Shown here one piece after another: positions 1 through 35,288 of a DNA stretch of 64,000 nt (positions are counted from its first letter, which is position 1; each line of letters opens with the position of its first letter). Location of the stretch: the NCBI GenBank assembly GCA_964016885.1, contig OZ024760.1, positions 29,760,001 to 29,824,000 of the forward strand, read 5' to 3'. Below the pieces are notes generated by a model. It ran no database searches. It saw only the letters and a list, made by a program, of their open reading frames with translations, and was not told the DNA's origin. Source of the stretch: Eledone cirrhosa. Lineage: Eukaryota. The translations under genes and the position numbers were made by a program.

Positions 1-1815
1 TGTGTAATGTAATGTAATGTAATGTGTAATGTAATGTAATGTAATGTAATATAATGTAATGTAATGTAATGTAATGTAATGTAACGTGTAATGTAATGTG
101 TAATGTAATGTAATGTAATGTAATTTAATGTGTAATGTAACGTAATGTAATGTGTAATGTAATGTAATGTGTAATGTAATGTAATGTAATGTAATGTAAT
201 GTGTAATGTAATGTAATGTAATGTAATATAATGTAATGTAATGTAATGTAATGTGTAATGTAATGTAATGTAATGTAATGTAATGTAGTGTGTAATGTAA
301 TGTAATGTAATGTAATGTACTGTAATGTGTAATGTAATGTAATGTAATGTGTAATGTAATGTAATGTAATATAATGTAATGTAATGTGCAATCTAATGTA
401 ATGTAATGTAATGTGTAATGTAATGTAATGTAGTGTGTAATGTAATGTAATGTAATGTAATATAATGTAATGTAACGTAATGTAATGTAATGTAATGTAA
501 TGTAATGTGTAATGTAATGTAATGTAATGTAATGTAATGTAATGTAATGTAATGTAATGTAATGTAATATAATATAATGTGTAATGTAATGTAATGTGTA
601 ATGTAATGTAATGTAATGTAATGTAACGTAATTTAATGTAATCTAATGTAATATAATGTAATTTGTAATGTAATGTAATGTGTAATGTAATGTAATGTAA
701 TGTGTAATGTAATGCAATGTAATGTCATGTAATGTGTAATGTAGTGTAATGTAATGTAATGTAATGTAATGTAATGTAATGTGTAATGTAATGTGTAATG
801 TAATGTAATGTAATGTAATGTAATGTAAAGTAATATATGTAATGTAATGTAATGTAATGTAATGTAATGTAATCTAATGTAATGTAATGTAATGTAATGT
901 GTAATGTAATGTAATGTAATGTAATGTAATCTGTAATGTAATGTAATGTGTAATGTAATGTAATGTAATGTGTAATGTAACGTAATGTGTAATGTAATGT
1001 AATGTGTAATGTAATGTAATGTAATATAATATAATGTAATGTAATGTAACGTGTAATGTAATGTAATGTAATGTAATGTGTAATGTAATGTAATGTAATG
1101 TAATGTAATGTAATGTGTAATGTAATGTAATGTAATGTGAAATGTAATGTAATGTAATGTAACGTGTAATTTAATGTAATGTAATGTGTAATGTAATGTA
1201 ATGTAATGTAATGTAATGTGTAATGTAATGTAATGTAATGTAATGTAGTGTGTAATGTAATGTAATGTAATGTAATGTGTAATGTAATGTAATGTAATGT
1301 AATGTGTAATGTAATGTAATGTAATGTAATGTAATGTGTAATGTAATGTAATGTGTAATGTGTAATGTAATGTAATGTAATGTAATATAATGTAATGTAA
1401 TGTAATGTAATGTAATGTGTAATGAAATGTAATGTAATGTAATGTGTAATGTAATGGAATGTGTAAGGTAATGTAATGTAATGTAATGTAATGTGTAATG
1501 TAATGTAATGTAATGTAATGTGTAATGTAATGTAATGTAATGTAATGTAATGTAATGTGTAATGTAATGTAATGTAATGTGTAATGTAATGTAATGTAAC
1601 TTGTAATGTAATGTAATGTAATGTAATGTGTAATGTAATGTAATGTAATGGAATGTGTAATGTAATGTGTAGTGTAATGTAATGTAATGTGTAATGTAAT
1701 GTAATGTATTGTAATGTAATGTAATTGTTTCTAATTTAGGCAGCAATTACCCTGTGCATTACTGGTACTTTATTTTATCGACCCCGTAAGGATGAAAAGC
1801 AAAGTCAACCTCGGT

Positions 1816-1828
1816 GGGATTTGAACTC
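1816..1828 (-). promoter_or_regulatory. RNA polymerase III B box (example from copy 1)
   Basis: GAGTTCAAATCCC matches the GTTCRANNC consensus, lies about 50 bp downstream of the A box and is intact in all 12 full copies. Confidence 0.88.
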
Positions 1829-1879
1829 AGATCGTAAAGGGACGTAACTATGCTGGAAAGCATGGCGTCCGACCCTCTA

Positions 1880-1891
1880 CCGATACTGCCA
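1880..1891 (-). promoter_or_regulatory. RNA polymerase III type-2 promoter A box (example from copy 1)
   Basis: TGGCAGTATCGG begins at position 11 of the element and fits a TRGCNNA..GG A box. It is present in all full copies and mutated to TCGC in the copy at 9804-9979. Confidence 0.8.
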
Positions 1892-3762
1892 ATCCACCGC
1901 CGTTTGTAATGTAATGTAATGTAATGTAATTTTTAATGTAACGTAATGTAATTTAATGTAATGTAATGTGTAACGTAATGTAATGTAATGAAAATGTAAT
2001 GTAATGTGTAATGTAATGTGTAATGTAATGTGTAATGTAATGTAATGTAATGTGTAATGTAATGTAATGTAATGTAATATAATGTAATGTAATGTAATGT
2101 AATGTAATGTAACGTGTAATGTAATGTGTAATGTAATGTAATGTAATGTAATTTAATGTGTAATGTAACGTAATGTAATGTGTAATGTAATGTAATGTGT
2201 AATGTAATGTAATGTAATGTAATGTAATGTAATGTGTAATGTAATGTAATGTAATGTAATATAATGTAATGTAATGTAATGTAATGTGTAATGTAATGTA
2301 ATGTAATGTAATGTAGTGTGTAATGTAATGTAATGTAATGTAATGTACTATAATGTGTAATGTAAGGTAATGTAATGTGTAATGTAATGTAATGTAATAT
2401 AATGTAATGTAATGTGCAATCTAATGTAATGTAATGTAATGTGTAATGTAATGTAATGTAGTGTGTAATGTAATGTAATGTAATGTTATATAATGTAATG
2501 TAATGTAATGTAATGTAATGTAATGTAATGTGTAATGTAATGTAATGTAATGTAATGTAATGTAATGTAATGTAATGTAATGTAATGTAATATAATATAA
2601 TGTGTAATGTAATGTAATGTGTAATGTAATGTAATGTAATGTAATGTAACGTAATTTAATGTAATGTAATGTAATATAATGTAATTTGTAATGTAATGTA
2701 ATGTGTAATGTAATGTAATGTAATGTGTAATGTAATGTAATGTAATGTCATGTAATGTGTAATGTAGTGTAATGTAATGTAATGTAATGTAATGTAATGT
2801 AATGTGTAATGTAATGTGTAATGTAATGTAATGTAATGTAATGTAATGTAAAGTAATATATGTAATGTAATGTAATGTAATGTAATGTAATCTAATGTAA
2901 TGTAATGTAATGTAATGTGTAATGTAATGTAATGTAATGTAATGTAATCTGTAATGTAATGTAATGTGTAATGTAATGTAATGTAATGTGTAATGTAACG
3001 TAATGTGTAATGTAATGTAATGTGTAATGTAATGTAATGTAATATAATATAATGTAATGTAATGTAACGTGTAATGTAATGTAATGTAATGTAATGTGTA
3101 ATGTAATGTAATGTAATGTAATGTAATGTAATGTGTAATGTAATGTAATGTAATGTGAAATGTAATGTAATGTAATGTAACGTGTAATTTAATGTAATGT
3201 AAGTGTAATGTAATGTAATGTAATGTAATGTAATGTAATGTAATGTGTAATGTAATGTAATGTAATGTAATGTAGTGTGTAATGTAATGTAATGTAATGT
3301 AATGTGTAATGTAATGTAATGTAATGTAATGTGTAATGTAATGTAATGTAATGTAATGTAATGTAATGTAATGTGTAATGTAATGTAATGTGTAATGTGT
3401 AATGTAATGTAATGTAATGTAATATAATGTAATGTAATGTAATGTAATGTAATGTGTAATGAAATGTAATGTAATGTAATGTGTAATGTAATGTAATGTG
3501 TAAGGTAATGTAATGTAATTTTATGTAATGTGTAATGTAATGTAATGTAATGTAATGTGTAATGTAATGTAATGTAATGTAATGTAATGTAATGTGTAAT
3601 GTAATGTAATATAATGTGTAATGTAATGTAATGTAACTTGTAATGTAATGTAATGTAATGTAATGTGTAATGTAATGTAATGTAATGGAATGTGTAATGT
3701 AATGTGTAGTGTAATGTAATGTAATGTGTAATGTAATGTAATGTATTGTAATGTAATGTAAT

Positions 3763-3938
3763 TGTTTCTAATTTAGGCAGCAATTACCCTGTGCATTACT
3801 GGTACTTTATTTTATCGACCCCGTAAGGATGAAAAGCAAAGTCAACCTCGGTGGGATTTGAACTCAGATCGTAAAGGGACGTAACTATGCTGGAAAGCAT
3901 GGCGTCCGACCCTCTACCGATACTGCCAATCCACCGCC
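3763..3938 (-). mobile_element. SINE copy 2 (lineage A, deleted form)
   Basis: Same sequence and same flanks as copy 1, located 2037 bp away. Confidence 0.9.
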
Positions 3939-4037
3939 GTTTGTAATGTAATGTAATGTAATGTAATTTTTAATGTAACGTAATGTAATTTAATGTAATG
4001 TAATGTGTAACGTAATGTAATGTAATGAAAATGTAAT

Positions 4038-4081
4038 TGTTTCTACTTTTGGCACAAGGCCAGCAATTACCCAGTGCATTA
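4038..4081 (-). mobile_element. 5'-truncated SINE fragment (3'-terminal 44 bp, lineage B-like)
   Basis: TGTTTCTACTTTTGGCACAAGGCCAGCAATTACCCAGTGCATTA matches the 3' end of the copies at 10792 and 60762, not the adjacent lineage A copy. Confidence 0.88.
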
Positions 4082-6970
4082 GTAATGTAATGTAATGTAA
4101 TGTAATGTAATGTTTAATGTAGTATAATGTAATGTAATGTAATGTAATGTAATGTAATGTAATGTTTAATGTAATGTAATGTAATGTAATGTAATTTTGA
4201 ATGTAATGTAATGTAATGTAATGTAATGTAATGTAATGTAATGTAATGTAGTGTAATGTAATGAAATGTAATGTAATGTGTAATGTAATGTAATGTAATG
4301 TAATGTAATGTAATGTAATGTGTAATGTAATGTAATGTAATGTAATGTGTAATGAGATGTAATGTAATGTAATGTAATGTATTGTTTAATGTAATGTAAT
4401 GTGTAATATAATGTAATATAATGTAATGTGTAATGTAATGTAATATAATGTAATGTAATGTGTAATGTAATGTAATGTAATGTAATGTAATGTAATGTGT
4501 AATGTAATGTAATGTAATTTAATTTAATTTAATGTAATGTAATGTAATGTAATGTAATGTAATGTAATGTAATGTAATGTAATGTAATGTAATGTAATAT
4601 AATGTAATGTAACGTAATGTAATGTGTAATGTAATGTAATGTAATGTAATGTAATGTAATGTAATGTAATGTTTAATGAGATGTAATGTAATGTAATGTA
4701 ATGTTTAATGTAATGTAACGTGTAATATAATGTAATGTAATGTAATGTGTAATGTAATGTAATATAATGTAATGTAATGTAATGTAATGTAACGTGTAAT
4801 GTAATGTGTAATGTAATGTAATGTAATGTAATTTAATGTGTAATGTAACGTAATGTAATGTGTAATGTAATGTAATGTGTAATGTAATGTAATGTAATGT
4901 AATGTAATGTAATGTGTAATGTAATGTAATGTAATGTAATATAATGTAATGTAATGTAATGTGTAATGTAATGTAATGTAATGTAATGTAGTGTGTAATG
5001 TAATGTAATGTAATGTAATGTACTGTAATGTGTAATGTAAGGTAATGTAATGTGTAATGTAATGTAATGTAATATAATGTAATGTAATGTGCAATCTAAT
5101 GTAATGTAATGTAATGTGTAATGTAATGTAATGTAGTGTGTAATGTAATGTAATGTAATGTAATATAATGTAATGTAATGTAATGTAATGTAATGTGTAA
5201 TGTAATGTAATGTAATGTAATGTAATGTAATGTAATGTAATATAATGTAATGTAATGTGCAATCTAATGTAATGTAATGTAATGTGTAATGTAATGTAAT
5301 GTAATGTAATATAATGTAATGTAATGTAATGTAATGTAATGTAACGTGTAATGTAATGTGTAATGTAATGTAATGTAATGTAATTTAATGTGTAATGTAA
5401 CGTAATGTAATGTGTAATGTAATGTAATGTGTAATGTAATGTAATGTAATGTAATGTAATGTAATGTGTAATGTAATGTAATGTAATGTAATATAATGTA
5501 ATGTAATGTAATGTAATGTGTAATGTAATGTAATGTAATGTAATGTAGTGTGTAATGTAATGTAATGTAATTTAATGTACTATAATGTGTAATGTAAGGT
5601 AATGTAATGTGTAATGTAATGTAATGTAATATAATGTAATGTAATGTGCAATCTAATGTAATGTAATGTAATGTGTAATGTAATGTAATGTAGTGTGTAA
5701 TGTAATGTAATGTAATGTTATATAATGTAATGTAATGTAATGTAATGTAATGTAATGTAATGTGTAATGTAATGTAATGTAATGTAATGTAATGTAATGT
5801 AATGTAATGTAATATAATATAATGTGTAATGTAATGTAATGTGTAATGTAATGTAATGTAATGTAATGTAACGTAATTTAATGTAATGTAATGTAATATA
5901 ATGTAATTTGTAATGTAATGTAATGTGTAATGTAATGTAATGTAATGTGTAATGTAATGTAATGTAATGTCATGTAATGTGTAATGTAGTGTAATGTAAT
6001 GTAATGTAATGTAATGTAATGTGTAATGTAATGTGTAATGTAATGTAATGTAATGTAATGTAATGTAAAGTAATATATGTAATGTAATGTAATGTAATGT
6101 AATGTAATCTAATGTAATGTAATGTAATGTAATGTGTAATGTAATGTAATGTAATGTAATGTAATCTGTAATGTAATGTAATGTGTAATGTAATGTAATG
6201 TAATGTGTAATGTAACGTAATGTGTAATGTAATGTAATGTGTAATGTAATGTAATGTAATATAATATAATGTAATGTAATGTAACGTGTAATGTAATGTA
6301 ATGTAATGTAATGTGTAATGTAATGTAATGTAATGTAATGTAATGTAATGTGTAATGTAATGTAATGTAATGTGAAATGTAATGTAATGTAATGTAACGT
6401 GTAATTTAATGTAATGTAATGTGTAATGTAATGTAATGTAATGTAATGTAATGTGTAATGTAATGTAATGTAATGTAATGTAGTGTGTAATGTAATGTAA
6501 TGTAATGTAATGTGTAATGTAATGTAATGTAATGTAATGTGTAATGTAATGTAATGTAATGTAATGTAATGTAATGTAATGTGTAATGTAATGTAATGTG
6601 TAATGTGTAATGTAATGTAATGTAATGTAATATAATGTAATGTAATGTAATGTAATGTAATGTGTAATGAAATGTAATGTAATGTAATGTGTAATGTAAT
6701 GTAATGTGTAAGGTAATGTAATGTAATTTTATGTAATGTGTAATGTAATGTAATGTAATGTGTAATGTAATGTAATGTAATGTAATGTAATGTAATGTAA
6801 TGTGTAATGTAATGTAATATAATGTGTAATGTAATGTAATGTAACTTGTAATGTAATGTAATGTAATGTAATGTGTAATGTAATGTAATGTAATGGAATG
6901 TGTAATGTAATGTGTAGTGTAATGTAATGTAATGTGTAATGTAATGTAATGTATTGTAATGTAATGTAAT

Positions 6971-7146
6971 TGTTTCTAATTTAGGCAGCAATTACCCTGT
7001 GCATTACTGGTACTTTATTTTATCGACCCCGTAAGGATGAAAAGCAAAGTCAACCTCGGTGGGATTTGAACTCAGATCGTAAAGGGACGTAACTATGCTG
7101 GAAAGCATGGCGTCCGACCCTCTACCGATACTGCCAATCCACCACC
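6971..7146 (-). mobile_element. SINE copy 3 (lineage A, deleted form)
   Basis: Same as copy 1 except CCACC for CCGCC at the element 5' end. Flanks are the same. Confidence 0.9.
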
Positions 7147-9803
7147 GTTTGTAATGTAATGTAATGTAATGTAATTTTTAATGTAACGTAATGTAATTTA
7201 ATGTAATGTAATGTGTAACGTAATGTAATGTAATGAAAATGTAATGTAATGTGTAATGTAATGTGTAATGTAATGTGTAATGTAATGTAATGTAATGTGT
7301 AATGTAATGTAATGTAATGTAATGTAATGTAATGTTTAATGTAGTATAATGTAATGTAATGTAATGTAATGTAATGTAATGTAATGTTTAATGTAATGTA
7401 ATGTAATGTAATGTAATTTTGAATGTAATGTAATGTAATGTAATGTAATGTGATGTAATGTAATGTAATGTAGTGTAATGTAATGAAATGTAATGTAATG
7501 TGTAATGTAATGTAATGTAATGTAATGTAATGTAATGTAATGTGTAATGTAATGTAATGTAATGTAATGTGTAATGAGATGTAATGTAATGTAATGTAAT
7601 GTATTGTTTAATGTAATGTAATGTGTAATATAATGTAATATAATGTAATGTGTAATGTAATGTAATATAATGTAATGTAATGTGTAATGTAATGTAATGT
7701 AATGTAATGTAATGTAATGTGTAATGTAATGTAATGTAATTTAATTTAATTTAATGTAATGTAATGTAATGTAATGTAATGTAATGTAATGTAATGTAAT
7801 GTAATGTAATGTAATGTAACGTAATGTAATGTGTAATGTAATGTAATGTAATGTAATGTAATGTAATGTAATGTAATGTAATGTTTAATGAGATGTAATG
7901 TAATGTAATGTAATGTTTAATGTAATGTAACGTGTAATATAATGTAATGTAATGTAATGTGTAATGTAATGTAATATAATGTAATGTAATGTAATGTAAT
8001 GTAACGTGTAATGTAATGTGTAATGTAATGTAATGTAATGTAATTTAATGTGTAATGTAACGTAATGTAATGTGTAATGTAATGTAATGTGTAATGTAAT
8101 GTAATGTAATGTAATGTAATGTAATGTGTAATGTAATGTAATGTAATGTAATATAATGTAATGTAATGTAATGTGTAATGTAATGTAATGTAATGTAATG
8201 TAGTGTGTAATGTAATGTAATGTAATGTAATGTACTGTAATGTGTAATGTAAGGTAATGTAATGTGTAATGTAATGTAATGTAATATAATGTAATGTAAT
8301 GTGCAATCTAATGTAATGTAATGTAATGTGTAATGTAATGTAATGTAGTGTGTAATGTAATGTAATGTAATGTAATATAATGTAATGTAATGTAATGTAA
8401 TGTAATGTGTAATGTAATGTAATGTAATGTAATGTAATGTAATGTAATGTAATATAATGTAATGTAATGTGCAATCTAATGTAATGTAATGTAATGTGTA
8501 ATGTAGTGTAATGTAGTGTGTAATGTAATGTAATGTAATGTAATATAATGTAATGTAATGTAATGTAATGTAATGTGTAATGTAATGTAATGTAATGTAA
8601 TGTAACGTAATTTAATGAAATGTAATGTAATGTAATGTAATTTGTAATGTAATGTAATGTGTAATGTAATGTAATGTAATGTAATGTGTAATGTAATGTA
8701 ATGTAATGTCATGTAATGTGTAATGTAGTGTAATGTAATGTAATGTAATGTAATGTAATGTAATGTGTAATGTAATGTGTAATGTAATGTAATGTAATGT
8801 AATGTAACGTAATATATGTAATGTAATGTAATGTATTGTAATGTAATCTAATGTAATGTAATGTAATGTGTAATGTAATGTAATGTAATGTAATGTGTAA
8901 TGTAATGTAATGTGTAATGTAATGTAATGTAATGTAATGTAATGTGTAATGTAATGTAATGTAATGTGTAATGTAACGTAATGTGTAATGTAATGTAATG
9001 TGTAATGTAATGTAATGTAATATAATATAATGTAATGTAATGTAACGTGTAATGTAATGTAATGTAATGTAATGTAATGTGTAATGTTATGTAATGTAAT
9101 GTAATGTAATGTGTAATGTAATGTAATGTAATGTGAAATGTAATGTAATGTAATGTAACGTGTAATTTAATGTAATGTAATGTGTAATGTAATGTAATGT
9201 GTAATGTAATGTAATGTAATGTAGTGTGTAATGTAATGTAATGTAATGTGTAATGTAATGTAATGTGTAATGTAATGTAATGTAATGTAATGTAATGTAA
9301 CGTAATGTGTAATGTAATGTAATGTGTAATGTGTAATGTAATATAATGTAATATAATGTAATGTAATGTGTAATGAAATGTAATGTAATGTAATGTGTAA
9401 TGTAATGTAATGTGTAAGGTAATGTAATGTAATGTGTAATGTAATGTAATGTAATGTAATGTGTAATGTAATTTAATGTAATGTAATGTGTAATGTAATG
9501 TAATGTGTAATGTAATGTAATGTAATGTAATGTAATGTGTAATGTAATGTAATGTGTAATGTGTAATGTAATGTAATGTAATGTAATATAATGTAATGTA
9601 ATGTAATGTAATGTAATGTGTAATGAAATGGAATGTAATGTAATGTGTAATGTAATGTAATGTGTAAGGTAATGTAACGTGTAATGTAATGTAATGTAAT
9701 GTAATTTGTAATGTAATGTAATGTAATGGAATGTGTAATGTAATGTGTAGTGTAATGTAATGTAATGTGTAACGTAATGTAATGTATTGTAATGTAATGT
9801 AAT

Positions 9804-9979
9804 TGTTTCTAATTTAGGTAGCAATTACCCTGTGCATTACTGGTACTTTATTTTATCGACCCCGTAAGGATGAAAAGCAAAGTCAACCTCGGTGGGATTT
9901 GAACTCAGATCGTAAAGGGACGTAACTATGCTGGAAAGCATGGCGTCCGACCCTCTACCGATACTGCGAATCCACCGCC
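9804..9979 (-). mobile_element. SINE copy 4 (lineage A, deleted form, A-box mutation)
   Basis: Same as copy 1 with AGGTAGC and ACTGCGAAT substitutions. Immediate flanks are the same. Confidence 0.9.
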
Positions 9980-10791
9980 GTTTGTAATGTAATGTAATGT
10001 AATGTAATGTAATGTAATGTAATGTTTAATGTAATGTAATGTAATGTAATGTGTAATGTAATGTAATGTAATGAAAATGTAATGTAATGTGTAATGTAAT
10101 GTGTAATGTAATGTAATGTAATGTTTAATGTAGTGTAATGTAATGTAATGTAATGTAATGTAATGTAATGTTTAATGTAATGTAATGTAATGTAATGTAA
10201 TTTTGAATGTAATGTAATGTAATGTAATGTAATGTAATGTAATGTAATGTAATGTAATGAAATGTAATGTAATGTGTAATGTAATGTAATGTGTAATGTA
10301 ATGTAATGTAATGTAATGTGTAATGAGATGTAATGTAATGTAATGTATTGTTTAATGTAATGTAATGTAATGTAATGTGTAATGTAATGTAATATAATGT
10401 AATGTGTAATGTAATGTAATGTAATGTAATGTAATGTAATGTGTAATGTAATGTAATGTAATGTAATGTAATGTAATGTAATGTGTAATGTAATGTAATG
10501 TAATGTAATGTAATGTTTAATGAGATGTAATGTAATGTAATGTAATGTTTAATGTAATGTAACGTGTAATATAATGTAATGTAATGTAATGTGTAATGTA
10601 ATGTAATGTAACGTGTAATGTAATGTGTAATGTAATGTAATTTAATGTGTAATGTAACGTAATGTAATGTGTAATGTAATGTAATGTGTAATGTAATGTA
10701 ATGTAATGTAATGTGTAATGTAATGTAATGTAATGTAATGTAATATAATGTAATGTAATGTAATGTGTAATATAATGTAATGTAATATAAT

Positions 10792-10976
10792 TGTTTCTAC
10801 TTTTGGCACAAGGCCAGCAATTACCCAGTACATTACTGGTACTTTATTTTATCGACCCCGTAAGGATGAAAGGCAAAGTTAACCTCGGCGGGATTTGAAC
10901 TCAGACCGCAAAGGGTCGTAATTATGCTGGAAAGCATGGCGTCCGACTCTCTACCGATACTGCCAATCCACCGCCC
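10792..10976 (-). mobile_element. SINE copy 5 (lineage B, full length, independent insertion with 19 bp TSD)
   Basis: Diagnostic variants are CTACTTTTGGCACAAGGCCAGC, GAAAGGC, CTCGGCGGG and GACCGCAAAGGGTCGTAATT. It is flanked by TAATGTAATGTAATATAAT at 10773-10791 and 10977-10995. Confidence 0.92.
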
Positions 10977-12125
10977 TAATGTAATGTAATATAATGTAAT
11001 GTAATGTGCAATCTAATGTAATGTAATGTAATGTGTAATGTAATGTAATGTAGTGTGTAATATAATGTAATGTAATGTAATATAATGTAATGTAATGTAA
11101 TGTAATGTAATGTAATGTGTAATGTAATGTAATGTAATGTAATGTAACGTAATTTAATGTAATGTAATGTAATGTAATGTAATTTGTAATGTAATGTAAT
11201 GTGTAATGTAATGTAATGTAATGTGTAATGTAATGTAATGTAATGTCATGTAATGTGTAATGTAGTGTAATGTAATGTAATGTAATGTAATGTAATGTAA
11301 TGTGTAATGTAATGTGTAATGTAATGTAATGTAATGTAAAGTAATATATGTAATGTAATGTAATGTAATGTAATGTGTAATGTAATGTAATGTGTAATGT
11401 AATGTAATGTAATGTAATGTAATGTAATGTGTAATGTAATGTAATGTACTGTGTAATGTAACGTAATGTGTAATGTAATGTAATGTGTAATGTAATGTAA
11501 TGTAATATAATATAATGTAATGTAATGTAACGTGTAATGTAATGTAATGTAATGTAATGTAATGTGTAATGTAATGTAATGTAATGTAATGTAATGTAAT
11601 GTGTAATGTAATGTAATGTAATGTGAAATGTAATGTAATATAACGTGTAATTTAATGTAATGTAATGTGTAATGTAATGTAATGTAATGTAATGTAATGT
11701 GTAATGTAATGTAATGTAATGTAATGTAGTGTGTAATGTAATGTAATGTAATGTAATGTGTAATGTAATGTAATGTAATGTAATGTAATGTGTAATGTAA
11801 TGTAATGTGTAATGTGTAATGTAATGTAATGTAATGTAATATAATGTAATGTAATGTAATGTAATGTAATGTGTAAGGTAATGTAATGTAATGTAATGTA
11901 ATGTGTAATGTAATGTAATGTAATGTAATGTGTAATGTAATGTAATGTAATGTAATGTGTAATGTAATGTAATGTAATGTGTAATGTAATGTAATGTAAT
12001 TTGTAATGTAATGTAATGTAATGTAATGTGTAATGTAATGTAATGTAATGGAATGTGTAATGTAATGTGTAGTGTAATGTAATGTAATGTGTAATGTAAT
12101 GTAATGTATTGTAATGTAATGTAAT

Positions 12126-12301
12126 TGTTTCTAATTTAGGCAGCAATTACCCTGTGCATTACTGGTACTTTATTTTATCGACCCCGTAAGGATGAAAAGC
12201 AAAGTCAACCTCGGTGGGATTTGAACTCAGATCGTAAAGGGACGTAACTATGCTGGAAAGCATGGCGTCCGACCCTCAACCGATACTGCCAATCCACCGC
12301 C
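12126..12301 (-). mobile_element. SINE copy 6 (lineage A, deleted form)
   Basis: Same as copy 1 with a CTCAACC substitution. Flanks are the same. Confidence 0.9.
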
Positions 12302-13049
12302 GTTTGTAATGTAATGTAATGTAATGTAATTTTTAATGTAACGTAATGTAATTTAATGTAATGTAATGTGTAATGTAATGTAATGTAATGAAAATGTAAT
12401 GTAATGTGTAATGTAATGTGTAATGTAATGTGTAATGTAATGTAATGTAATGTGTAATGTAATGTAATGTAATGTAATGTAATGTTTAATGTAGTGTAAT
12501 GTAATGTAATGTAATGTAATGTAATGTTTAATGTAATGTAATGTAATGTAATGTAATTTTGAATGTAATGTAATGTAATGTAATGTAATGTAATGTAATG
12601 TAATGTAATGTAGTGTAATGTAATGAAATGTAATGTAATGTGTAATGTAATGTAATGTAATGTAATGTAATGTAATGTAATGTGTAATGTAATGTAATGT
12701 AATGTAATGTGTAATGAGATGTAATGTAATGTAATGTATTGTTTAATGTAATGTAATGTGTAATATAATGTAATGTAATGTAATATAATGTAATGTAATG
12801 TGTAATGTAATGTAATGTAATGTAATGTAATGTAATGTGTAATGTAATGTAATGTAATTTAATGTAATGTAATGTAATGTAATGTAATGTAATGTAATGT
12901 AATGTAATGTAATGTAATGTAATGTAATGTAATGTAATGTAATGTAATGTTTAATGAGATGTAATGTAATGTAATGTAGTGTTTAATGTAATGTAACGTG
13001 TAATATAATGTAATGTAATGTAATGTGTAATGTAATGTAATATAATGTA

Positions 13050-15630
13050 ATGTAATGTAATGTAATGTAATGTAATGTAATGTAATGTAATGTAATGTGT
13101 AATGTAATGTAATGTAATGTAATGTAATGTAATGTAATGTAATGAAATGTGTAATGTAATGTAATGTAATGTAATGTAATGTAATGTAATGTAATGTGTA
13201 ATGTAATGTAATGTAATGTAATGTAATGTAATCTGTAATGTAATTTAATGTAATGTAATGTAATGTAATGTAATGTAATGTAATGTAATGTGTAATGTAA
13301 TGTAATGTAATGTAAAGTAATGTGTAATGTAATGTAATGCAATGTAATGTAATGTAATGTAATGTAATGTAATGTAATGTAATGTAATGTAATGTAATGT
13401 AATGTAATGTAATGTAATATAATGTAATGTAATGTGTTATGTAATGTAATGTAATGTAATGTAATGTAATGTAATGTGTAATGTAATGTAATGTAATGTA
13501 ATGTAATGTAATGTAATGTAATGTGTGATGTAATGTAATGTAATGTAATGTAATGTGTAATGTAATGTAATGTAATGTAATGTAATGTAATGTGTAATGT
13601 AATGTAATGTAATGTAATGTAATGTGTAATGTAATGTAATGTAATGTAATGTAATGTAATGTAAAATGTAATGTAATGTAATGTAATGTGTAATGTAATG
13701 TAATGTAATGTAATGTAATGTAATGTAATGTAATGTGTAATGTAATGTAATGTGTAATGTAATGTAATGTAATGTAATGTATTGTAATGTAATATGTAAT
13801 GTAATGTAATGTAATGTAATGTGGAATGTAATGTAATGTAATGTAGTGTGTAATGTAATGTAATGTGTAATTTAATGTACTGTAATGTAATGTAATGTAA
13901 TGTAATGTAATGTGTAATGTAATGTGTAATGTAATGTAATGTAATGTAATGTAATATAATGTGTAATGTATTGTAATATAATTTGTAATGTAATGTAATG
14001 TAATGTAATTTAATGTAATGTAATGTAATGTGTAATGTAATGTGTAATGTAATGTAATGTAACGTAATGTGTAATGTAATGTAATGTAATGTAATGTAAT
14101 GTAATGTAATGTGTAATGTAATGTAATGTAATGTAATGTGTAATGTAATGTACTGTAATGTAATGTAATTTAATGTAATGTAATGTAATGTGTAATGTAA
14201 TGTAATGTGTAATGTAATGTAATGTGTAATGTAATGTAATGTAATGTAATGTCATGTAATGTGTAATGTAATGTAATGTAATGTAATGTAATGTGTAATG
14301 TAATATAATGTAATGCAATGCAATGTAATGAATGTAATGTAATGTAATGTAATGTAATGTAATGTAATGTAATGTAATGTAATGTAATGTAATGTAATGT
14401 AATGTAATGTAATGAAATGTGTAATGTAATGTAATGTAATGTAATGTAATGTAATGTAATGTAATGTAATGTGTAATGTAATGTAATGTAATGTAATGTA
14501 ATGTAATCTGTAATGTAATTTAATGTAATGTAATGTAATGTAATGTAATGTAATGTAATGTAATGTGTAATGTAATGTAATGTAATGTAATGTAATGTAA
14601 AGTAATGTGTAATGTAATGTAATGCAATGTAATGTAATGTAATGTAATGTAATGTAATGTAATGTAATGTAATGTAATGTAATGTAATGTAATGTAATGT
14701 AATGTAATGTGTTATGTAATGTAATGTAATGTAATGTAATGTAATGTAATGTAATGTAATGTGTAATGTAATGTAATGTAATGTAATGTAACGTGTAATG
14801 TAATGTAATGTAATGTAATGTGTAATGTAATGTAATGTAATGTAATGTAATGTGTAATGTAATGTAATGTAATGTAATGTAATGTAATGTGTAATGTAAT
14901 GTAATGTAATGTAATGTGTAATGTAATGTAATGTAATGTAATGTAATGTAATGTAAAATGTAATGTAATGTAATGTAATGTGTAATGTAATGTAATGTAA
15001 TGTAATGTAATGTAATGTAATGTGTAATGTAATGTAATGTGTAATGTAATGTAATGTAATGTAATGTATTGTAATGTAATATGTAATGTAATGTAATGTA
15101 ATGTAATGTGGAATGTAATGTAATGTAATGTAGTGTGTAATGTAATGTAATGTGTAATTTAATGTACTGTAATGTAATGTAATGTAATGTAATGTAATGT
15201 GTAATGTAATGTGTAATGTAATGTAATGTAATGTAATGTAATATAATGTGTAATGTATTGTAATGTAATGTGTAATGTAATGTAATGTAATGTAATTTAA
15301 TGTAATGTAATGTAATGTGTAATGTAATGTGTAATGTAATGTAATGTAACGTAATGTGTAATGTAATGTAATGTAATGTAATGTAATGTAATGTAATGTA
15401 ATGTGTAATGTAATGTAATGTAATGTAATGTAATGTGTAATGTAATGTACTGTAATGTAATGTAATTTAATGTAATGTAATGTAATGTGTAATGTAATGT
15501 AATGTGTAATGTAATGTAATGTGTAATGTAATGTAATGTAATGTAATGTCATGTAATGTGTAATGTAATGTAATGTAATGTAATGTGTAATGTAATATAA
15601 TGTAATGCAATGCAATGTAATGAATGTAAT
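13050..15630. repeat. Tandem duplication of about 1.27-1.29 kb
   Basis: GAAATGTG at 13144 and 14414, GTGGAATG near 13821 and 15107, and GCAATGCAATGTAATGAATG near 14315 and 15606. Boundaries are approximate. Confidence 0.7.
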
Positions 15631-18600
15631 GTAATGTAATGTAATGTAATGTAATGTAATGTAATGTAATGTAATGTAATGTAATGTAATGTAATGTAAT
15701 GTAATGTAATGTAATGTAATGTGTAATGTAATGTAATTTAATGTAATGTAATGTAATGTAATGTAATGTAATGTAATGTAATGTGTAATGTAAAGTAATG
15801 TAATGTAACGTGTAATGTAATGTAATGTAATGTAATGTGTAATGTAATGTAATGTAATGTAATGTAATGTAATGTAATGTGTAATGTAATGTAATGTAAT
15901 GTAATGTAATGTAATGTAATGTGTAATGTAATGTAATGTAATGTAATGTAATGTAAAATGTAATGTAATGTAATGTAATGTGTAATGTAATGTAATGTAA
16001 TGTAATGTAATGTAATGTAATGTGTAATGTAATGTAATGTAATGTGTAATGTAATGTAATGTAATGTAATGTAATGTATTGTAATGTAATATGTAATGTA
16101 ATGTAATGTAATGTAATGTAATGTGGAATGTAATGTAATGTAATGTAGTGTGTAATGTAATGTAATGTGTAATTTAATGTACTGTAATGTAATGTAATGT
16201 AATGTAATGTAATGTAATGTGTAATGTAATGTGTAATGTAATGTAATGTAATGTAATGTAATATAATGTGTAATGTAATGTAATGTAATGTGTAATGTAA
16301 TGTAATGTAATGTAATTTAATGTAATGTAATGTAATGTGTAATGTAATGTGTAATGTAATGTAATGTAATGTAATGTAATGTAATATAATGTGTAATGTA
16401 ATGTAATGTAATGTGTAATGTAATGTAATGTAATGTAATGTAATGTAATGTGTAATGTAATGTAATGTAATGTAATGTAATGTGTAATGTAATGTAATGT
16501 AATGTAATGTAATTTAATGTAATGTAATGTAATATGTAATGTAATGTAATGTAATGTGTAATGTAATGTAATGTGTAATGTAATGTAATGTAATGTAATG
16601 TCATGTAATGTGTAATGTAATGTAATGTAACGTAATGTAATGTAATGTAATGTAATGTGTAATGTAATGTGTAATGTAATGTAATGTAATGTAATGTAAA
16701 GTAATATATGTAATGCAATGTAATGTAATGTAATCTAATGTAATGTAATGTAATGTGTAATGTAATGTAATGTAATATAATGTAATGTTATGTAATGTAA
16801 CGTAATGTAATGTAATGTAATGTAATGTGTAATGTAATGTAATGTAATGTAATGTAATGTAATGTAATGTAATGTGTAAGGTAATGTAATGTAATGTAAG
16901 GTAATGTAATGTAATGTAATGTGTAATGTGTAATGTAATGTAATGTGTAATGTGAAATGTAATGTAATGTAATGTAATGTTTAATTTAATGTAATGTAAT
17001 GTGTAATGTAATGTAATGTAATGTAATGTAATGTAATGTAATGTGTAATGTAATGTAATGTAATGTAATGTAATGTTTAATGTAGTGTAATGTAACGTAA
17101 TGTAATGTAATGTTTAATGTAATGTAATGTAATGTAATGTAATTTTGAATGTAATGTAATGTAATGTAATGTAATGTAATGTAATGTAATGTAATGTAAT
17201 GTAATGTAATGTAGTGTAATGTAATGAAATGTAATGTAATGTGTAATGTAATGTAATGTAATGTAATGTAATGTAATGTGTAATGTAATGTAATGTAATG
17301 TGTAATGAGATGTAATGTAATGTAATGTAATGTTTAATGTAATGTAATGTGTAATATAATGTAATGTAAAGTAATGTGTAATGTAATGTAATATAATGTA
17401 ATGTAATGTGTAATGTAATGTAATGTAATGTAATGTAATGTAATGTAATGTGTAATGTAATGTAATGTAATGTAATGTAATGTAATGTAATTTAATTTAA
17501 TGTAATGTAATGTAATGTAATGTAATGTAATGTAATGTAATGTAATGTAATGTAATGTAATGTAATGTAATGTGTAATGTAATGTAATGTAATGTAATGT
17601 AATGTAATGTAATGTTTAATGAGATGTAATGTAACGTAATGTAATGTTTAATGTAATGTAATGTGTAATATAATGTAATGTAATGTAATGTGTAATGTAA
17701 TGTAATATAATGTAATGTAATGTAATGTAATGTAATGTGTAATTTAATGTAATGTAATGTAATGTAATGTAATGTAATGTAATGTAATGTAAAATGTAAT
17801 GTAATGTAATGTAATGTAATGTAATGTAATGTAATGTGTAATGTAATGTAATGTAATGTAATGTAATCTGTAATGTAATTTAATGTAATGTAATGTAATG
17901 TAATGTAATGTAATGTAATGTAATGTAATGTGTAATGTAATGTAATGTAATGTAATGTAATGTAATGTAAAGTAATGTGTAATGTAATGTAATGTAATGT
18001 AATGTAATGTAATATAATGTAATGTAATGTAATGTAATGTAATGTAATGTAATGTAAAATGTAATGTAATGTAATGTAATGTAATGTAATGTAATGTAAT
18101 GTAATGTAATGTAATGTGTACTGTAATGTAATGTAATGTAATGTAATCTGTAATGTAATTTAATGTAATGTAATGTAATGTAATGTAATGTAATGTAATG
18201 TAATGTAATGTAATGTAAAGTAATGTGTAATGTAATGTAATGTAATGTAATGTAATGTAATATAATGTAATGTAATGTAATGTAATGTAATGTAATGTAA
18301 CGTGTAATGTAATGTAATGTAATGTAATGTAATGTGTAATGTAATGTAATGTAATGTAATGTAATGTAATGTAATGTAATGTAATGTGTAATGTAATGTA
18401 ATGTAATGTAATGTATAATGTAATGCAATGTAATGTGTAATGTAATGTAATGTAATGTAATGTAATGTAATGTAATGTAATGTAATGTAATGTAATGTGT
18501 AATGTAATGTAATGTAATGTGTAATGTAATGTAATGTAATGTATTGTAATGTAATATGTAATGTAATGTAATGTGTAATGTAATGTAATGTAATGTAGTG

Positions 18601-19888
18601 TGTAATGTAATGTAATGTGTAATTTAATGTACTGTAATGTAATGTAATGTAATGTAATGTGTAATGTAATGTGTAATGTAATGTAATGTAATGTAATGTA
18701 ATATAATGTGTAATGTAATGTAGTGTGTAATGTAATGTAATGTAATGTAATTTAATGTAATGTAATGTAATGCGTAATGTAATGTAACGTAATGTAATGT
18801 GTAATGTAATGTAATGTAATGTAATGTAATGTAATGTAATGTGTAATGTAATGTAATGTAATGTAATGTAATGTGTAATGTAATGTAATGTAATGTAATG
18901 TAATTTAATGTAATGTAATGTGTAATGTAATGTAATGTAATGTGTAATGTAATGTAATGTGTAATGTAATGTAATGTAATGTGTAATGTAATGTAATGTC
19001 ATGTAATGTGTAATGTAATGTAATGTAATGTAATGTAATGTAATGTAATGTAATGTAATGTGTAATGTAATGTGTAATGTAATGTAATGTAATGTAATGT
19101 AAAGTAATATATGTAATGCAATGTAATGTAATGTAATCTAACGTAATGTAATGTAATGTGTAATGTAATGTAATGTGTAATGTAATGTAATGTAATGTAA
19201 TGTAATGTGTAATGTAATGTAATGTGTAATGTAATGTAATGTGTAATGTAATGTAATATAATGTAATGTAATGTAATGTAATATGTAATGTAATGTAATG
19301 TAATGTAATGTGTAATGTAATGTAATGTAATGTAATGTAATGTAATGTAATGTGTAAGGTAATGTAATGTAAGGTAATGTAATGTGTAATGTGTAATGTA
19401 ATGTAATGTGTAATGTGAAATGTAATGTAATGTAATGTAATGTGTAATTTAATGTAATGTGTAATGTAATGTAATGTAATGTAATGTAATGTAATGTAAT
19501 GTGTAATGTAATGTAATGTAGTGTGTAATGTAATGTAATGTAATGTGTAATGTAATGTAATGTGTAATGTAATGTAATGTAATGTGTAATGTAATGTAAT
19601 GTAATATAATGTAATATAATGTAATGTAATGTGTAATGAAATGTAATGTAATGTAATGTGTAATGTAATGTAATATAATGTAATGTGTAAGGTAATGTAA
19701 TGTAATGTAATGTAATGTAATGTAATGTGTAATATAATGTAATGTAATGTAATGGGTAATGTAATGTAATGTAATGTAATTTGTAATGTAATGTAATGTA
19801 ATGTAATGTAATGTGTAATGTAATGTAATGTGTAGTGTAATGTAATGTAACGTGTAATGTAATGTAATGTATTGTAATGTAATGTAAT

Positions 19889-20064
19889 TGTTTCTAATTT
19901 AGGCAGCAATTACCCTGTGCATTACTGGTACTTTATTTTATCGACCCCGTAAGGATGAAAAGCAAAGTCAACCTCGGTGGGATTTGAACTCAGATCGTAA
20001 AGGGACGTAACTATGCTGGAAAGCATGGCGTCCGACCCTCTACCGATACTGCCAATCCACCGCC
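19889..20064 (-). mobile_element. SINE copy 7 (lineage A, deleted form)
   Basis: Same sequence and flanks as copy 1. Confidence 0.9.
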
Positions 20065-23000
20065 GTTTGTAATGTAATGTAATGTAATGTAATTTTTAAT
20101 GTAACGTAATGTAATTTAATGTAATGTAATGTGTAATGTAATGTAATGTAATGAAAATGTAATGTAATGTGTAATGTAATGTGTAATGTAATGTGTAATG
20201 TAATGTAATGTAATGTAATGTGTAATGTAATGTAATGTAATGTAATGTAATGTAATGTTTAATGTAGTGTAATGTAATGTAATGTAATGTAATGTAATGT
20301 TTAATGTAATGTGATGTAATGTAATATAATTTTGAATGTAATGTAATGTAATGTAATGTAATGTAATGTAATGTAATGTAATGTAATGTAGTGTAATGTA
20401 ATGAAATGTAATGTAATGTGTAATGTAATGTAATGTAATGTAATGTAATGTAATGTGTAATGTAATGTAATGTAATGTAATGTGTAATGAGATGTAATGT
20501 AATGTAATGTATTGTTTAATGTAATGTAATGTGTAATATAATGTAATGTAATGTAATGTGTAATGTAATGTAATATAATGTAATGTAATGTGTAATGTAA
20601 TGTAATGTAATGTAATGTAATGTGTAATGTAATGTAATGTAATGTAATGTAATGTAATGTAATGTAATGTAATGTAATGTAATGTAATGTGTAATGTAAT
20701 GTAATGTAATGTAATGTAATGTAATGTTTAATGAGATGTAATGTAATGTAATGTAATGTAATGTTTAATGTAATGTAACGTGTAATATAATGTAATGTAA
20801 TGTAATGTGTAATGTAATGTAATATAATGTAATGTAATGTAATGTAATGTAATGTAATGTAATGTAATGTAATGTGTAATGTAATGTAATGTAATGTAAT
20901 GTAATGTAATGTAATGAAATGTGTAATGTAATGTAATGTAATGTAATGTAATGTAATGTAATGTGTAATGTAATGTAATGTAATGTAATGTAATGTAATC
21001 TGTAATGTAATTTAATGTAATGTAATGTAATGTAATGTAATGTAATGTAATGTAATGTGTAATGTAATGTAATGTAATGTAAAGTAATGTGTAATGTAAT
21101 GTAATGCGATGTAATGTAATGTAATGTAATGTAATGTAATGTAATGTAATGTAATGTAATGTAATGTGTTATGTAATGTAATGTAATGTAATGTAATGTA
21201 ATGTAATGTAATGTGTAATGTAATGTAATGTAATGTAACGTGTAATGTAATGTAATGTAATGTAATGTAATGTGTAATGTAATGTAATGTAATGTAATGT
21301 AATGTAATGTAATGTGTAATGTAATGTAATGTAATGTAATGTAATGTAATGTAATGTGTAATGTAATGTAATGTAATGTAATGTAATGTAATGTGTAATG
21401 TAATGTAATGTAATGTAATGTAATGTAAAATGTAATGTAATGTAATGTAATGTGTAATGTAATGTAATGTAATGTAATGTAATGTAATGTAATGTGTAAT
21501 GTAATGTGTAATGTAATGTAATGTAATGTAATGTATTGTAATGTAATATGTAATGTAATGTAATGTAATGTAATGTGGAATGTAATGTAATGTAATGTAG
21601 TGTGTAATGTAATGTAATGTGTAATTTAATGTACTGTAATGTAATGTAATGTAATGTAATGTGTAATGTAATGTGTAATGTAATGTAATGTAATGTAATG
21701 TAATATAATGTGTAATGTAATGTAATGTAATGTGTAATGTAATGTAATGTAATGTAATTTAATGTAATGTAATGTAATGTGTAATGTAATGTGTAATGTA
21801 ATGTAATGTAACGTAATGTGTAATGTAATGTAATGTAATGTAATGTAATGTAATGTAATGTAATGTGTAATGTAATGTAATGTAATGTAATGTAATGTGT
21901 AATGTAATGTACTGTAATGTAATGTAATTTAATGTAATGTAATGTAATGTGTAATGTAATGTAATGTGTAATGTAATGTAATGTGTAATGTAATGTAATG
22001 TAATGTAATGTCATGTAATGTGTAATGTAATGTAATGTAATGTAATGTGTAATGTAATATAATGTAATGCAATGCAATGTAATGAATGTAATGTAATGTA
22101 ATGTAATGTAATGTAATGTAATGTAATGTAATGTAATGTAATGTAATGTAATGTAATGTAATGTAATGTAATGTAATGTAATGTGTAATGTAATGTAATT
22201 TAATGTAATGTAATGTAATGTAATGTAATGTAATGTAATGTAATGTGTAATGTAAAGTAATGTAATGTAACGTGTAATGTAATGTAATGTAATGTAATGT
22301 GTAATGTAATGTAATGTAATGTAATGTAATGTAATGTAATGTGTAATGTAATGTAATGTAATGTAATGTAATGTAATGTAATGTGTAATGTAATGTAATG
22401 TAATGTAATGTAATGTAAAATGTAATGTAATGTAATGTAATGTGTAATGTAATGTAATGTAATGTAATGTAATGTAATGTAATGTGTAATGTAATGTAAT
22501 GTAATGTGTAATGTAATGTAATGTAATGTAATGTAATGTATTGTAATGTAATATGTAATGTAATGTAATGTAATGTAATGTAATGTGGAATGTAATGTAA
22601 TGTAATGTAGTGTGTAATGTAATGTAATGTGTAATTTAATGTACTGTAATGTAATGTAATGTAATGTAATGTAATGTAATGTGTAATGTAATGTGTAATG
22701 TAATGTAATGTAATGTAATGTAATATAATGTGTAATGTAATGTAATGTAATGTGTAATGTAATGTAATGTAATGTAATTTAATGTAATGTAATGTAATGT
22801 GTAATGTAATGTGTAATGTAATGTAATGTAATGTAATGTAATGTAATATAATGTGTAATGTAATGTAATGTAATGTGTAATGTAATGTAATGTAATGTAA
22901 TGTAATGTAATGTGTAATGTAATGTAATGTAATGTAATGTAATGTGTAATGTAATGTAATGTAATGTAATGTAATTTAATGTAATGTAATGTAATATGTA

Positions 23001-26000
23001 ATGTAATGTAATGTAATGTGTAATGTAATGTAATGTGTAATGTAATGTAATGTAATGTAATGTCATGTAATGTGTAATGTAATGTAATGTAACGTAATGT
23101 AATGTAATGTAATGTAATGTGTAATGTAATGTGTAATGTAATGTAATGTAATGTAATGTAAAGTAATATATGTAATGCAATGTAATGTAATGTAATCTAA
23201 TGTAATGTAATGTAATGTGTAATGTAATGTAATGTAATATAATGTAATGTTATGTAATGTAACGTAATGTAATGTAATGTAATGTAATGTGTAATGTAAT
23301 GTAATGTAATGTAATGTAATGTAATGTAATGTAATGTGTAAGGTAATGTAATGTAATGTAAGGTAATGTAATGTAATGTAATGTGTAATGTGTAATGTAA
23401 TGTAATGTGTAATGTGAAATGTAATGTAATGTAATGTAATGTTTAATTTAATGTAATGTAATGTGTAATGTAATGTAATGTAATGTAATGTAATGTAATG
23501 TAATGTGTAATGTAATGTAATGTAATGTAATGTAATGTTTAATGTAGTGTAATGTAACGTAATGTAATGTAATGTTTAATGTAATGTAATGTAATGTAAT
23601 GTAATTTTGAATGTAATGTAATGTAATGTAATGTAATGTAATGTAATGTAATGTAATGTAATGTAATGTAATGTAGTGTAATGTAATGAAATGTAATGTA
23701 ATGTGTAATGTAATGTAATGTAATGTAATGTAATGTAATGTGTAATGTAATGTAATGTAATGTGTAATGAGATGTAATGTAATGTAATGTAATGTTTAAT
23801 GTAATGTAATGTGTAATATAATGTAATGTAAAGTAATGTGTAATGTAATGTAATATAATGTAATGTAATGTGTAATGTAATGTAATGTAATGTAATGTAA
23901 TGTAATGTAATGTGTAATGTAATGTAATGTAATGTAATGTAATGTAATGTAATTTAATTTAATGTAATGTAATGTAATGTAATGTAATGTAATGTAATGT
24001 AATGTAATGTAATGTAATGTAATGTAATGTAATGTGTAATGTAATGTAATGTAATGTAATGTAATGTAATGTAATGTTTAATGAGATGTAATGTAACGTA
24101 ATGTAATGTTTAATGTAATGTAATGTGTAATATAATGTAATGTAATGTAATGTGTAATGTAATGTAATATAATGTAATGTAATGTAATGTAATGTAATGT
24201 GTAATTTAATGTAATGTAATGTAATGTAATGTAATGTAATGTAATGTAATGTAAAATGTAATGTAATGTAATGTAATGTAATGTAATGTAATGTAATGTG
24301 TAATGTAATGTAATGTAATGTAATGTAATCTGTAATGTAATTTAATGTAATGTAATGTAATGTAATGTAATGTAATGTAATGTAATGTAATGTGTAATGT
24401 AATGTAATGTAATGTAATGTAATGTAATGTAAAGTAATGTGTAATGTAATGTAATGTAATGTAATGTAATGTAATATAATGTAATGTAATGTAATGTAAT
24501 GTAATGTAATGTAATGTAAAATGTAATGTAATGTAATGTAATGTAATGTAATGTAATGTAATGTAATGTAATGTAATGTGTACTGTAATGTAATGTAATG
24601 TAATGTAATCTGTAATGTAATTTAATGTAATGTAATGTAATGTAATGTAATGTAATGTAATGTAATGTAATGTAATGTAAAGTAATGTGTAATGTAATGT
24701 AATGTAATGTAATGTAATGTAATATAATGTAATGTAATGTAATGTAATGTAATGTAATGTAACGTGTAATGTAATGTAATGTAATGTAATGTAATGTGTA
24801 ATGTAATGTAATGTAATGTAATGTAATGTAATGTAATGTAATGTAATGTGTAATGTAATGTAATGTAATGTAATGTATAATGTAATGCAATGTAATGTGT
24901 AATGTAATGTAATGTAATGTAATGTAATGTAATGTAATGTAATGTAATGTAATGTAATGTGTAATGTAATGTAATGTAATGTGTAATGTAATGTAATGTA
25001 ATGTATTGTAATGTAATATGTAATGTAATGTAATGTGTAATGTAATGTAATGTAATGTAGTGTGTAATGTAATGTAATGTGTAATTTAATGTACTGTAAT
25101 GTAATGTAATGTAATGTAATGTGTAATGTAATGTGTAATGTAATGTAATGTAATGTAATGTAATATAATGTGTAATGTAATGTAGTGTGTAATGTAATGT
25201 AATGTAATGTAATTTAATGTAATGTAATGTAATGCGTAATGTAATGTAACGTAATGTAATGTGTAATGTAATGTAATGTAATGTAATGTAATGTAATGTA
25301 ATGTGTAATGTAATGTAATGTAATGTAATGTAATGTGTAATGTAATGTAATGTAATGTAATGTAATTTAATGTAATGTAATGTGTAATGTAATGTAATGT
25401 AATGTGTAATGTAATGTAATGTGTAATGTAATGTAATGTAATGTGTAATGTAATGTAATGTCATGTAATGTGTAATGTAATGTAATGTAATGTAATGTAA
25501 TGTAATGTAATGTAATGTAATGTGTAATGTAATGTGTAATGTAATGTAATGTAATGTAATGTAAAGTAATATATGTAATGCAATGTAATGTAATGTAATC
25601 TAACGTAATGTAATGTAATGTGTAATGTAATGTAATGTGTAATGTAATGTAATGTAATGTAATGTAATGTGTAATGTAATGTAATGTGTAATGTAATGTA
25701 ATGTGTAATGTAATGTAATATAATGTAATGTAATGTAATGTAATATGTAATGTAATGTAATGTAATGTAATGTGTAATGTAATGTAATGTAATGTAATGT
25801 AATGTAATGTAATGTGTAAGGTAATGTAATGTAAGGTAATGTAATGTGTAATGTGTAATGTAATGTAATGTGTAATGTGAAATGTAATGTAATGTAATGT
25901 AATGTGTAATTTAATGTAATGTGTAATGTAATGTAATGTAATGTAATGTAATGTAATGTAATGTGTAATGTAATGTAATGTAGTGTGTAATGTAATGTAA

Positions 26001-26350
26001 TGTAATGTGTAATGTAATGTAATGTGTAATGTAATGTAATGTAATGTGTAATGTAATGTAATGTAATATAATGTAATATAATGTAATGTAATGTGTAATG
26101 AAATGTAATGTAATGTAATGTGTAATGTAATGTAATATAATGTAATGTGTAAGGTAATGTAATGTAATGTAATGTAATGTAATGTAATGTGTAATATAAT
26201 GTAATGTAATGTAATGGGTAATGTAATGTAATGTAATGTAATTTGTAATGTAATGTAATGTAATGTAATGTAATGTGTAATGTAATGTAATGTGTAGTGT
26301 AATGTAATGTAACGTGTAATGTAATGTAATGTATTGTAATGTAATGTAAT

Positions 26351-26526
26351 TGTTTCTAATTTAGGCAGCAATTACCCTGTGCATTACTGGTACTTTATTT
26401 TATCGACCCCGTAAGGATGAAAAGCAAAGTCAACCTCGGTGGGATTTGAACTCAGATCGTAAAGGGACGTAACTATGCTGGAAAGCATGGCGTCCGACCC
26501 TCTACCGATACTGCCAATCCACCGCC
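26351..26526 (-). mobile_element. SINE copy 8 (lineage A, deleted form)
   Basis: Same as copy 7 and exactly 6462 bp away, inside a tandem duplication. Confidence 0.9.
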
Positions 26527-34277: not shown

Positions 34278-34461
34278 TGTTTCTAATTTAGGAACAAGGG
34301 CAGCAATTACCCTGTGCATTACTGGTACTTTATTTTATCGACCCCATAAGGATGAAAAGCAAAGTCAACCTCGGTGGGATTTGAACTCAGATCGTAAAGG
34401 GACGTAACTATGCTGGAAAGCATGGCGTCCGACCCTCTACCGATACTGCCAATCCACCGCC
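34278..34461 (-). mobile_element. SINE copy 9 (lineage A, undeleted form, 184 bp)
   Basis: Has lineage A flanks, retains the 8 bp segment (AGGAACAAGGGCAGC) and carries the CCCATAAGG variant shared with copy 12. Confidence 0.9.
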
Positions 34462-35104: not shown

Positions 35105-35288
35105 TGTTTCTAATTTAGGCACAAGGGCAGCAATTACCCTGTGCATTACTGGTACTTTATTTTATCGACCCCGTAAGGATGAAAAGCAAAGTCTATCTCG
35201 GTGGGATTTGAACTCAGATCGTAAAGGGACGTAACTATGCTGGAAAGCATGGCGTCCGACCCTCTACCGATACTGCCAATCCACCGCC
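35105..35288 (-). mobile_element. SINE copy 10 (lineage A, undeleted form, 184 bp)
   Basis: Has lineage A flanks, AGGCACAAGGGCAGC and a private GTCTATCTCGG variant. Confidence 0.9.

Follow-up and report, generated by a model that had tools for sequence, protein, structure and literature searches.

A SINE-like insertion flanked by a direct repeat, and its empty paralogous sites, in a pentamer satellite array of Eledone cirrhosa

Structure of the satellite array and of the inserted element

The window analysed here is a stretch of 64,000 nucleotides that is filled by about 12,000 TGTAA monomers, together with TG spacers and variant monomers. The only non-satellite islands in this window are 12 full copies (177-186 bp) of one element and a single 44-bp piece. 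Near-exact long higher-order duplications were found at 15259-28300 with a period of 6,462 bp, at 36681-46400 with a period of 4,832 bp and at 47600-53100 with a period of about 3,485 bp, and a higher-order period of about 3,210 bp extends across the first 9 kb. Owing to a 168-bp local duplication at 5060-5265 and 8272-8477, the units there contain a pair of anchors whose left contexts differ. A region of 25.5 kb at 35292-60761 is free of the element; its higher-order units differ from those of the rest of the window, with which it has landmark monomers in common. Monomers in minus-strand orientation amount to 13 in the window, and every one of them is located inside an element. The features are compiled in Table 1.

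Table 1. Features of the satellite window and of the element copies, with positions in the 64,000-nt window
Feature	Position	Strand	Remarks
(TGTAA)n / (ATTAC)n pentamer array	1..64000		Variant monomers and higher-order periods of ~3.2, 3.5, 4.8 and 6.5 kb
SINE-like element, copy 5, 185 bp, 5' GGGCGG ... GAAACA 3'	10792..10976	-	Only copy of its lineage in the window
A-box-like Pol III motif, element positions 12-23	10954..10965	-	Match to consensus pattern
B-box-like Pol III motif, element positions 77-85	10892..10900	-	Match to consensus pattern
19-bp direct repeat, element 3' end	10773..10791	.	Target-site duplication, of which 4-5 nt may be tail/target overlap
19-bp direct repeat, element 5' end	10977..10995	.	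Exact match to 10773..10791
Left context of copy 5	10746..10772	.	A instead of G at 10772, otherwise as in the empty units; a 91-101-bp block is missing at ~10755
GTGCAATCT anchor marking the paralogous unit position	11006..11014	+	8 copies, none of them beyond 11.1 kb
Empty paralogous site	357..375	.	46-nt left match, one mismatch
Empty paralogous site	2385..2403	.	37-nt left match
Empty paralogous site	5060..5078	.	37-nt left match
Empty paralogous site, absent from the sequence-only reading	5617..5635	.	37-nt left match
Empty paralogous site	8272..8290	.	37-nt left match
Empty anchor site, rearranged left context	5228..5246	.	Differs from filled left side
Empty anchor site, rearranged left context	8440..8458	.	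Differs from filled left side
Distal empty paralogue without the anchor variant	56657..56675	.	Others at 58419, 59452, 62425
Copy 11, second single-copy insertion	60762..60946	-	Exact 19-bp repeats at 60743-60761 and 60947-60965
Copy 11 empty site	34790..34837	.	Sole exact match in the window to the rebuilt 48-nt pre-insertion core
Family A, representative	1726..1902	-	Flanking repeat of 17 bp exact, 18 bp with one mismatch
Family A, 10 copies	1726, 3763, 6971, 9804, 12126, 19889, 26351, 34278, 35105, 61214		
44-bp 3' fragment of the element	4038..4081	-	Replaces 58 bp of satellite (7246-7303) in the paralogue starting at 7150

The element is SINE-like at the level of the class, and no family membership is claimed. 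Its size lies in the range of about 100-600 bp, and it is interspersed, with 12 full copies at three independent sites in addition to the fragment; a length of 185 bp excludes an encoded reverse transcriptase. Motifs resembling the A and B boxes, as judged by consensus patterns, start near the 5' end at positions 12 and 77 in all three copies tested and occur on the minus strand only. Three independent full-length insertions are flanked by putative target-site duplications of 19, 19 and 17-18 bp, two of them with empty sites. No tRNA gene was detected by ARAGORN, the Rfam search of positions 9700-12400 gave no match at E values up to 10, and the element alone gave three Rfam matches, none of them significant and none to a tRNA. 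Since no tRNA and no Rfam family matched, it is the size, the boxes, the dispersal and the flanking repeats that underlie the term tRNA-derived SINE. The folding of the element RNA was no better than that of shuffled sequences (z -0.53, with 50 of 200 shuffles as good).

A plus-strand orientation of the element was ruled out, the box-like motifs being confined to the minus strand and the fragment retaining the GAAACA end. A MITE or another DNA transposon was likewise rejected in view of the non-complementary ends GGGCGG and GAAACA, the repeat of 14-19 bp and the existence of a fragment that consists of the 3' part only. No LINE was found in the 64-kb window. Among three copies checked, only copy 5 has no run of four T within its sense strand, and the next such run follows 715 nt downstream; runs of this type, which could stop Pol III early, are located at position 43 in copy 11 and at position 105 in the first copy of family A.

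The element may resemble an abundant interspersed repeat of octopus. Searches for relatives yielded none in bacterial or archaeal genomes with two pattern scans, and no blastn match among plasmids and phages. No report of the element or of the array was found among the papers listed by literature searches, although repeat databases and supplements may hold one, and when full texts were searched for strings of the sequence, the matches listed were all unrelated papers. Membership in the MetaSINEs is unsupported by the supplement of PMC4824008, in which five short element strings had no match and the alignment of BivaMeta-SINE1 shows no likeness by eye. With respect to other octopods, PMC13282606 gives a SINE content of 11.6% for the O. 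vulgaris assembly and 4,544 recently active SINE insertions.

Flanking repeats and empty sites of the insertions

An identical 19-mer, TAATGTAATGTAATATAAT, lies flush with both ends of copy 5, as the sequence-only reading had stated, and it carries a variant monomer. Since this 19-mer occurs 142 times in the 64 kb, a flush repeat of this length or longer is expected by chance at 2.9% of the positions: when the right flank was kept fixed, 313 of the 10,673 in-phase left satellite positions gave a flush repeat of at least 19 nt, and 140 gave exactly 19. With the left flank fixed, at least 15 nt were obtained at 725 of 61,152 right-flank positions, 140 of which gave 19. The repeat together with 46 nt of context was matched at 22 of 10,674 positions, a number that includes the paralogues themselves, and the string across the filled left junction occurs nowhere else in the window. 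By itself, the repeat of copy 5 is suggestive, modest evidence and not decisive.

The same unit position also exists in an empty state. The GTGCAATCT anchor is present eight times in the window, and seven of these units contain a single 19-mer 29 nt upstream of the anchor and no element, the eighth being the filled site. This extends the list of four empty sites given previously, and in none of the seven empty anchor units is the 19-mer doubled at this site. The alignment of filled and empty units that had been proposed as a check thus gave a single 19-mer and no element in the empties, whereas a full match to both flanks was not provided by any empty unit. In five of the seven anchor units the left context agrees with that of the filled site over 37-46 nt, apart from a single mismatch at 10772 (A for G); the alignment of the left context was restricted to these five, the units at 5228 and 8440 being without the upstream landmark. 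When the element and one repeat were removed, the filled site differed from the five units by 2-4 substitutions in 289 nt and was 96-101 nt shorter. A block of 91-101 bp of the empty units is missing from the filled unit at about 10755, with a breakpoint that is not resolvable within the repeat.

Four distal paralogues (Table 1) are empty as well and have retained the block, which indicates that the empty and block-present state is the ancestral one. Moreover, the unit containing copy 5 (9983-12125) is a contracted form of its paralogues: over about 2 kb it shows nine deletions of 20-99 nt relative to the nearest empty units and no gain of at least 20 nt. In view of these nine deletions, there is no need to connect the missing block with the insertion. 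The substitution at 10772 and the loss of 91-101 bp are likely to be separate events in the turnover of the array.

Copy 11 and its empty site form a cleaner pair than copy 5, with a less distinctive repeat. The repeat alone is weak, being matched by chance at 2,325 of 10,673 positions (22%); the rebuilt core has one perfect match in the window and many with one mismatch. The ten copies of family A have their flanks in common and are 0-6 substitutions apart from one another, and therefore represent one older insertion that was amplified by duplication of the array. A repeat of 17 bp is exact in seven of the ten copies (63 of 10,673 positions by chance); copy 4 at 9804 was left out of this count owing to a mutated right anchor, and the repeats of copies 10 and 12 have decayed to 12 and 11 nt. 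At 17 places with the left 19-mer of family A, nine filled and eight in another context, no empty site was recognised. Close to the 3' end, seven of the ten copies (c1-c4 and c6-c8; 1726-26528) have an 8-bp deletion, which is absent from c9, c10 and c12 (34278, 35105, 61214) and marks a later wave of amplification in the left half of the window.

The 44-bp fragment keeps the GAAACA end, and its flanks are identical to those of the paralogue starting at 7150 at 344 of 345 positions, with a flanking repeat at chance level. It represents either a 5'-truncated insertion with loss of target or the result of a later deletion, it is probably the youngest event, and it shows that the element can here come with target loss instead of duplication. 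Over its length, the fragment is one base away from copy 5, likewise one from copy 11, and 4-5 bases away from family A, and it breaks exactly at the only internal inverted monomer of the element, with a CATTA-G-TAATG junction at 4077-4087.

In all 13 copies, which derive from four independent events, GAAACA is joined directly to ATTA on one strand and in one phase. The shared phase of the four events has a chance probability of 0.008, and phase and strand together 0.001; the joint chance probability of the three flanking repeats (copy 5, copy 11 and family A) is 3.8e-5, calculated post hoc. The ATTA at the 3' end is inseparable from the target sequence. The first four junction bases fit any tail of the ATT(A) type, and for copy 5 an (ATT)n tail would agree with five bases, so that the same sequence is generated by a duplication of 15-19 bp with up to four overlapping bases or by a duplication of 14 bp with a 5-nt ATTAT tail. 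If the variant base came from the target, the duplication measures 15-19 bp, and if it came from the RNA, 14 bp. Accordingly, the proposed duplication of exactly 19 bp has to be widened to 14-19 bp. The companion claim that the element brought no (ATTAC)n tail holds insofar as no base separates GAAACA from the maximal repeat, but a lack of tail cannot be shown from junction bases that fit tail and target alike. It is fair to state that no tail was inserted beyond the overlap, from which a tail-less RNA does not follow, and the similarity of the repeat totals at three sites is a mild argument against long added tails of variable length.

Origin of copy 5 and alternative explanations

Between copy 5 and each of the 11 remaining full copies there are 10-17 substitutions at about 180 sites, with 12-17 substitutions to family A and 10 to copy 11. 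The surrounding unit is separated from its three nearest empty units by only 8-9 substitutions in about 1,144 nt (<1%), from a fourth by 17 and from the distal units by 29-33, divergences that are to be read as relative figures since substitution counts inside a pentamer repeat can trade against gaps. The filled unit thus nests among the empties. A sister relation to the unit at 8440, with one block absent in both, was considered, but by the number of substitutions the units at 357, 2385 and 5617 are the better candidates; the nesting among empties is retained under either placement. Since about 0.7 private substitutions are expected in copy 5 since the split of the units, the 10-17 differences observed indicate that copy 5 is not a neighbour copied by recombination within the array but derives from an outside source. 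Taken together, the divergence of the element and that of the units point to another source lineage and to an arrival after the units had separated. The sequence-only reading had proposed retrotransposition after duplication of the higher-order units, and this proposal is strengthened by the distal empty units, by the divergences and by the repeats of similar length at the other insertions.

Copy 5 is therefore very probably the product of ordinary LINE-driven target-primed reverse transcription into a unit of the array after unit duplication. In such an event, SINE RNA from a source copy outside the 64-kb stretch would have been taken up by a LINE, and the plus strand would have been nicked after ...TAAT. 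The nicked TAAT end likely paired with the AUU(A) end of the RNA and would then have primed cDNA synthesis, a cut of the opposite strand 14-19 nt away and subsequent fill-in giving rise to the direct repeat.

The missing block might alternatively be explained by an insertion accompanied by a target-site deletion, with priming some 80-100 bp further to the left, an ATTAT tail providing the left variant base and a coincidental repeat. Such a course would cover block loss and insertion by one event, the breakpoint of the block being placed no finer than the repeat allows; the fragment at 4038 does replace 58 bp, and 5 nt at the junction of copy 5 would coincide with a hypothetical (ATT)n tail. 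The right flank would, however, have to reproduce the variant in register by chance (at least 15 nt at 725 of 61,152 positions, 19 nt at 140), and the other three insertions continue with ATTAC rather than ATTAT. Deletions of 20-99 nt are frequent in the filled unit anyway, and copy 11 combines a repeat of the same length and an exact empty site with the absence of a deletion, which makes a target-site deletion at copy 5 very unlikely. Gene conversion or unequal exchange as the route by which the filled segment came from another array, with the retrotransposition taking place earlier and elsewhere, would be in line with the turnover of the array by block duplication and deletion, through which family A reached its ten copies. 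Such an import is highly improbable in the light of both flanks, which show landmarks typical of the local units, among them the anchor that is confined to the first 11.1 kb of the window, and of the 64 kb containing no second element of the copy-5 type; moreover, an import would shift the date and place of the event and would not remove the duplication.

Loss of an ancestral element from the other units is conceivable in mechanistic terms, since recombination between the two 19-mers leaves a clean empty site and homogenisation could spread the loss. The empty state is nevertheless found in all seven other anchor units and in four distal paralogues, that is in 11 of the 12 paralogous sites examined, and the distal lineage and the near units, at the least, would have had to lose the element separately, so that ancestral presence is extremely improbable. 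Simple-sequence arrays are error-prone, and an assembly or consensus artefact at the junctions has to be weighed for this reason, but it is hardly credible given that copy 5 has substitutions of its own that are absent from the other copies, that paralogous segments of 1.35 kb with no substitution between them point to an accurate sequence, and that the same geometry recurs at three separate insertions.

Significance and comparison with known systems

The probable retrotransposition of copy 5 into a duplicated unit is textbook in its mechanism, and it would gain greater weight only if genome-wide data showed targeting of this satellite. The case is instructive in that a target-site duplication and its empty site are readable inside a simple-sequence array without a second genome, the variant monomers serving as landmarks. 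Four insertions of different ages, with family A as the oldest and the fragment as the youngest, provide a relative clock of array turnover. These data suggest that the element family was mobile recently, which makes these insertion sites candidate presence/absence markers.

A bolder reading, which we regard as doubtful, is that the SINE lineage is steered into the pentamer satellite. The 3' end of the RNA would pair with the nicked satellite strand and thereby fix strand and phase, with a constant stagger of about 19 bp, and copies within the satellite that, like copy 5, have intact boxes but lack an internal T4 stop might be read through into (AUUAC)n and re-target the array. If true, element and satellite would form a self-feeding loop, and stacked insertions would date the duplications of the array.

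An overlap of 3' tail and target has been described for CR1, L2, RTE and L1 elements (PMC6007223, PMC13295347). The element shares with the RTE-mobilised tRNA-derived SINEs treated there (Sauria SINE, Au SINE and AFROSINE) the short length, A- and B-box-like motifs, direct repeats, and a 3' end running into a simple repeat, where tail and target would overlap. PMC6007223 gives target-site duplications of 7-15 bp (mode 10-12) for RTE and 7-18 bp for L1; a repeat of 19 bp exceeds both ranges unless the overlap is subtracted, so that only the lower readings fit, and the 14-19 bp observed here, depending on how the 4-5 overlapping bases are assigned, stand against mostly 7-15 bp for RTE-dependent SINEs. 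Since duplications of 20 bp are reported for Utopia elements of reptiles (PMC4640811), the length of the duplication does not identify the LINE partner. The Tn-TA signature of RTE, a T run about 10 nt upstream as described in these sources, is illegible here, all four sites being located in the pentamer array.

Insertion of SINEs and non-LTR elements into simple repeats is already known (PMC3812793, PMC9659126). Entry into a pre-existing simple-repeat tract is shared with the microsatellite-targeting elements Dong (TAA), Waldo, Mino, Kibi and Koshi (PMC3812793) and with the HERO and Togen families (PMC4640811). In contrast to the 185-bp non-coding element of this study, the elements named in these sources are autonomous LINEs with shown specificity. 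Compared with specificity of the Dong type, all four events share strand and phase, but the window consists entirely of satellite.

L1 and Alu in alpha-satellite DNA represent retroelements that are embedded in satellite arrays and amplified with them. The array described here resembles this situation: family A is an old insertion that multiplied as the array duplicated, and younger insertions in single units, with empty paralogues, stand next to it. Unlike alpha-satellite, the array has a monomer of 5 bp, and without the variant monomers the duplication would not be readable.
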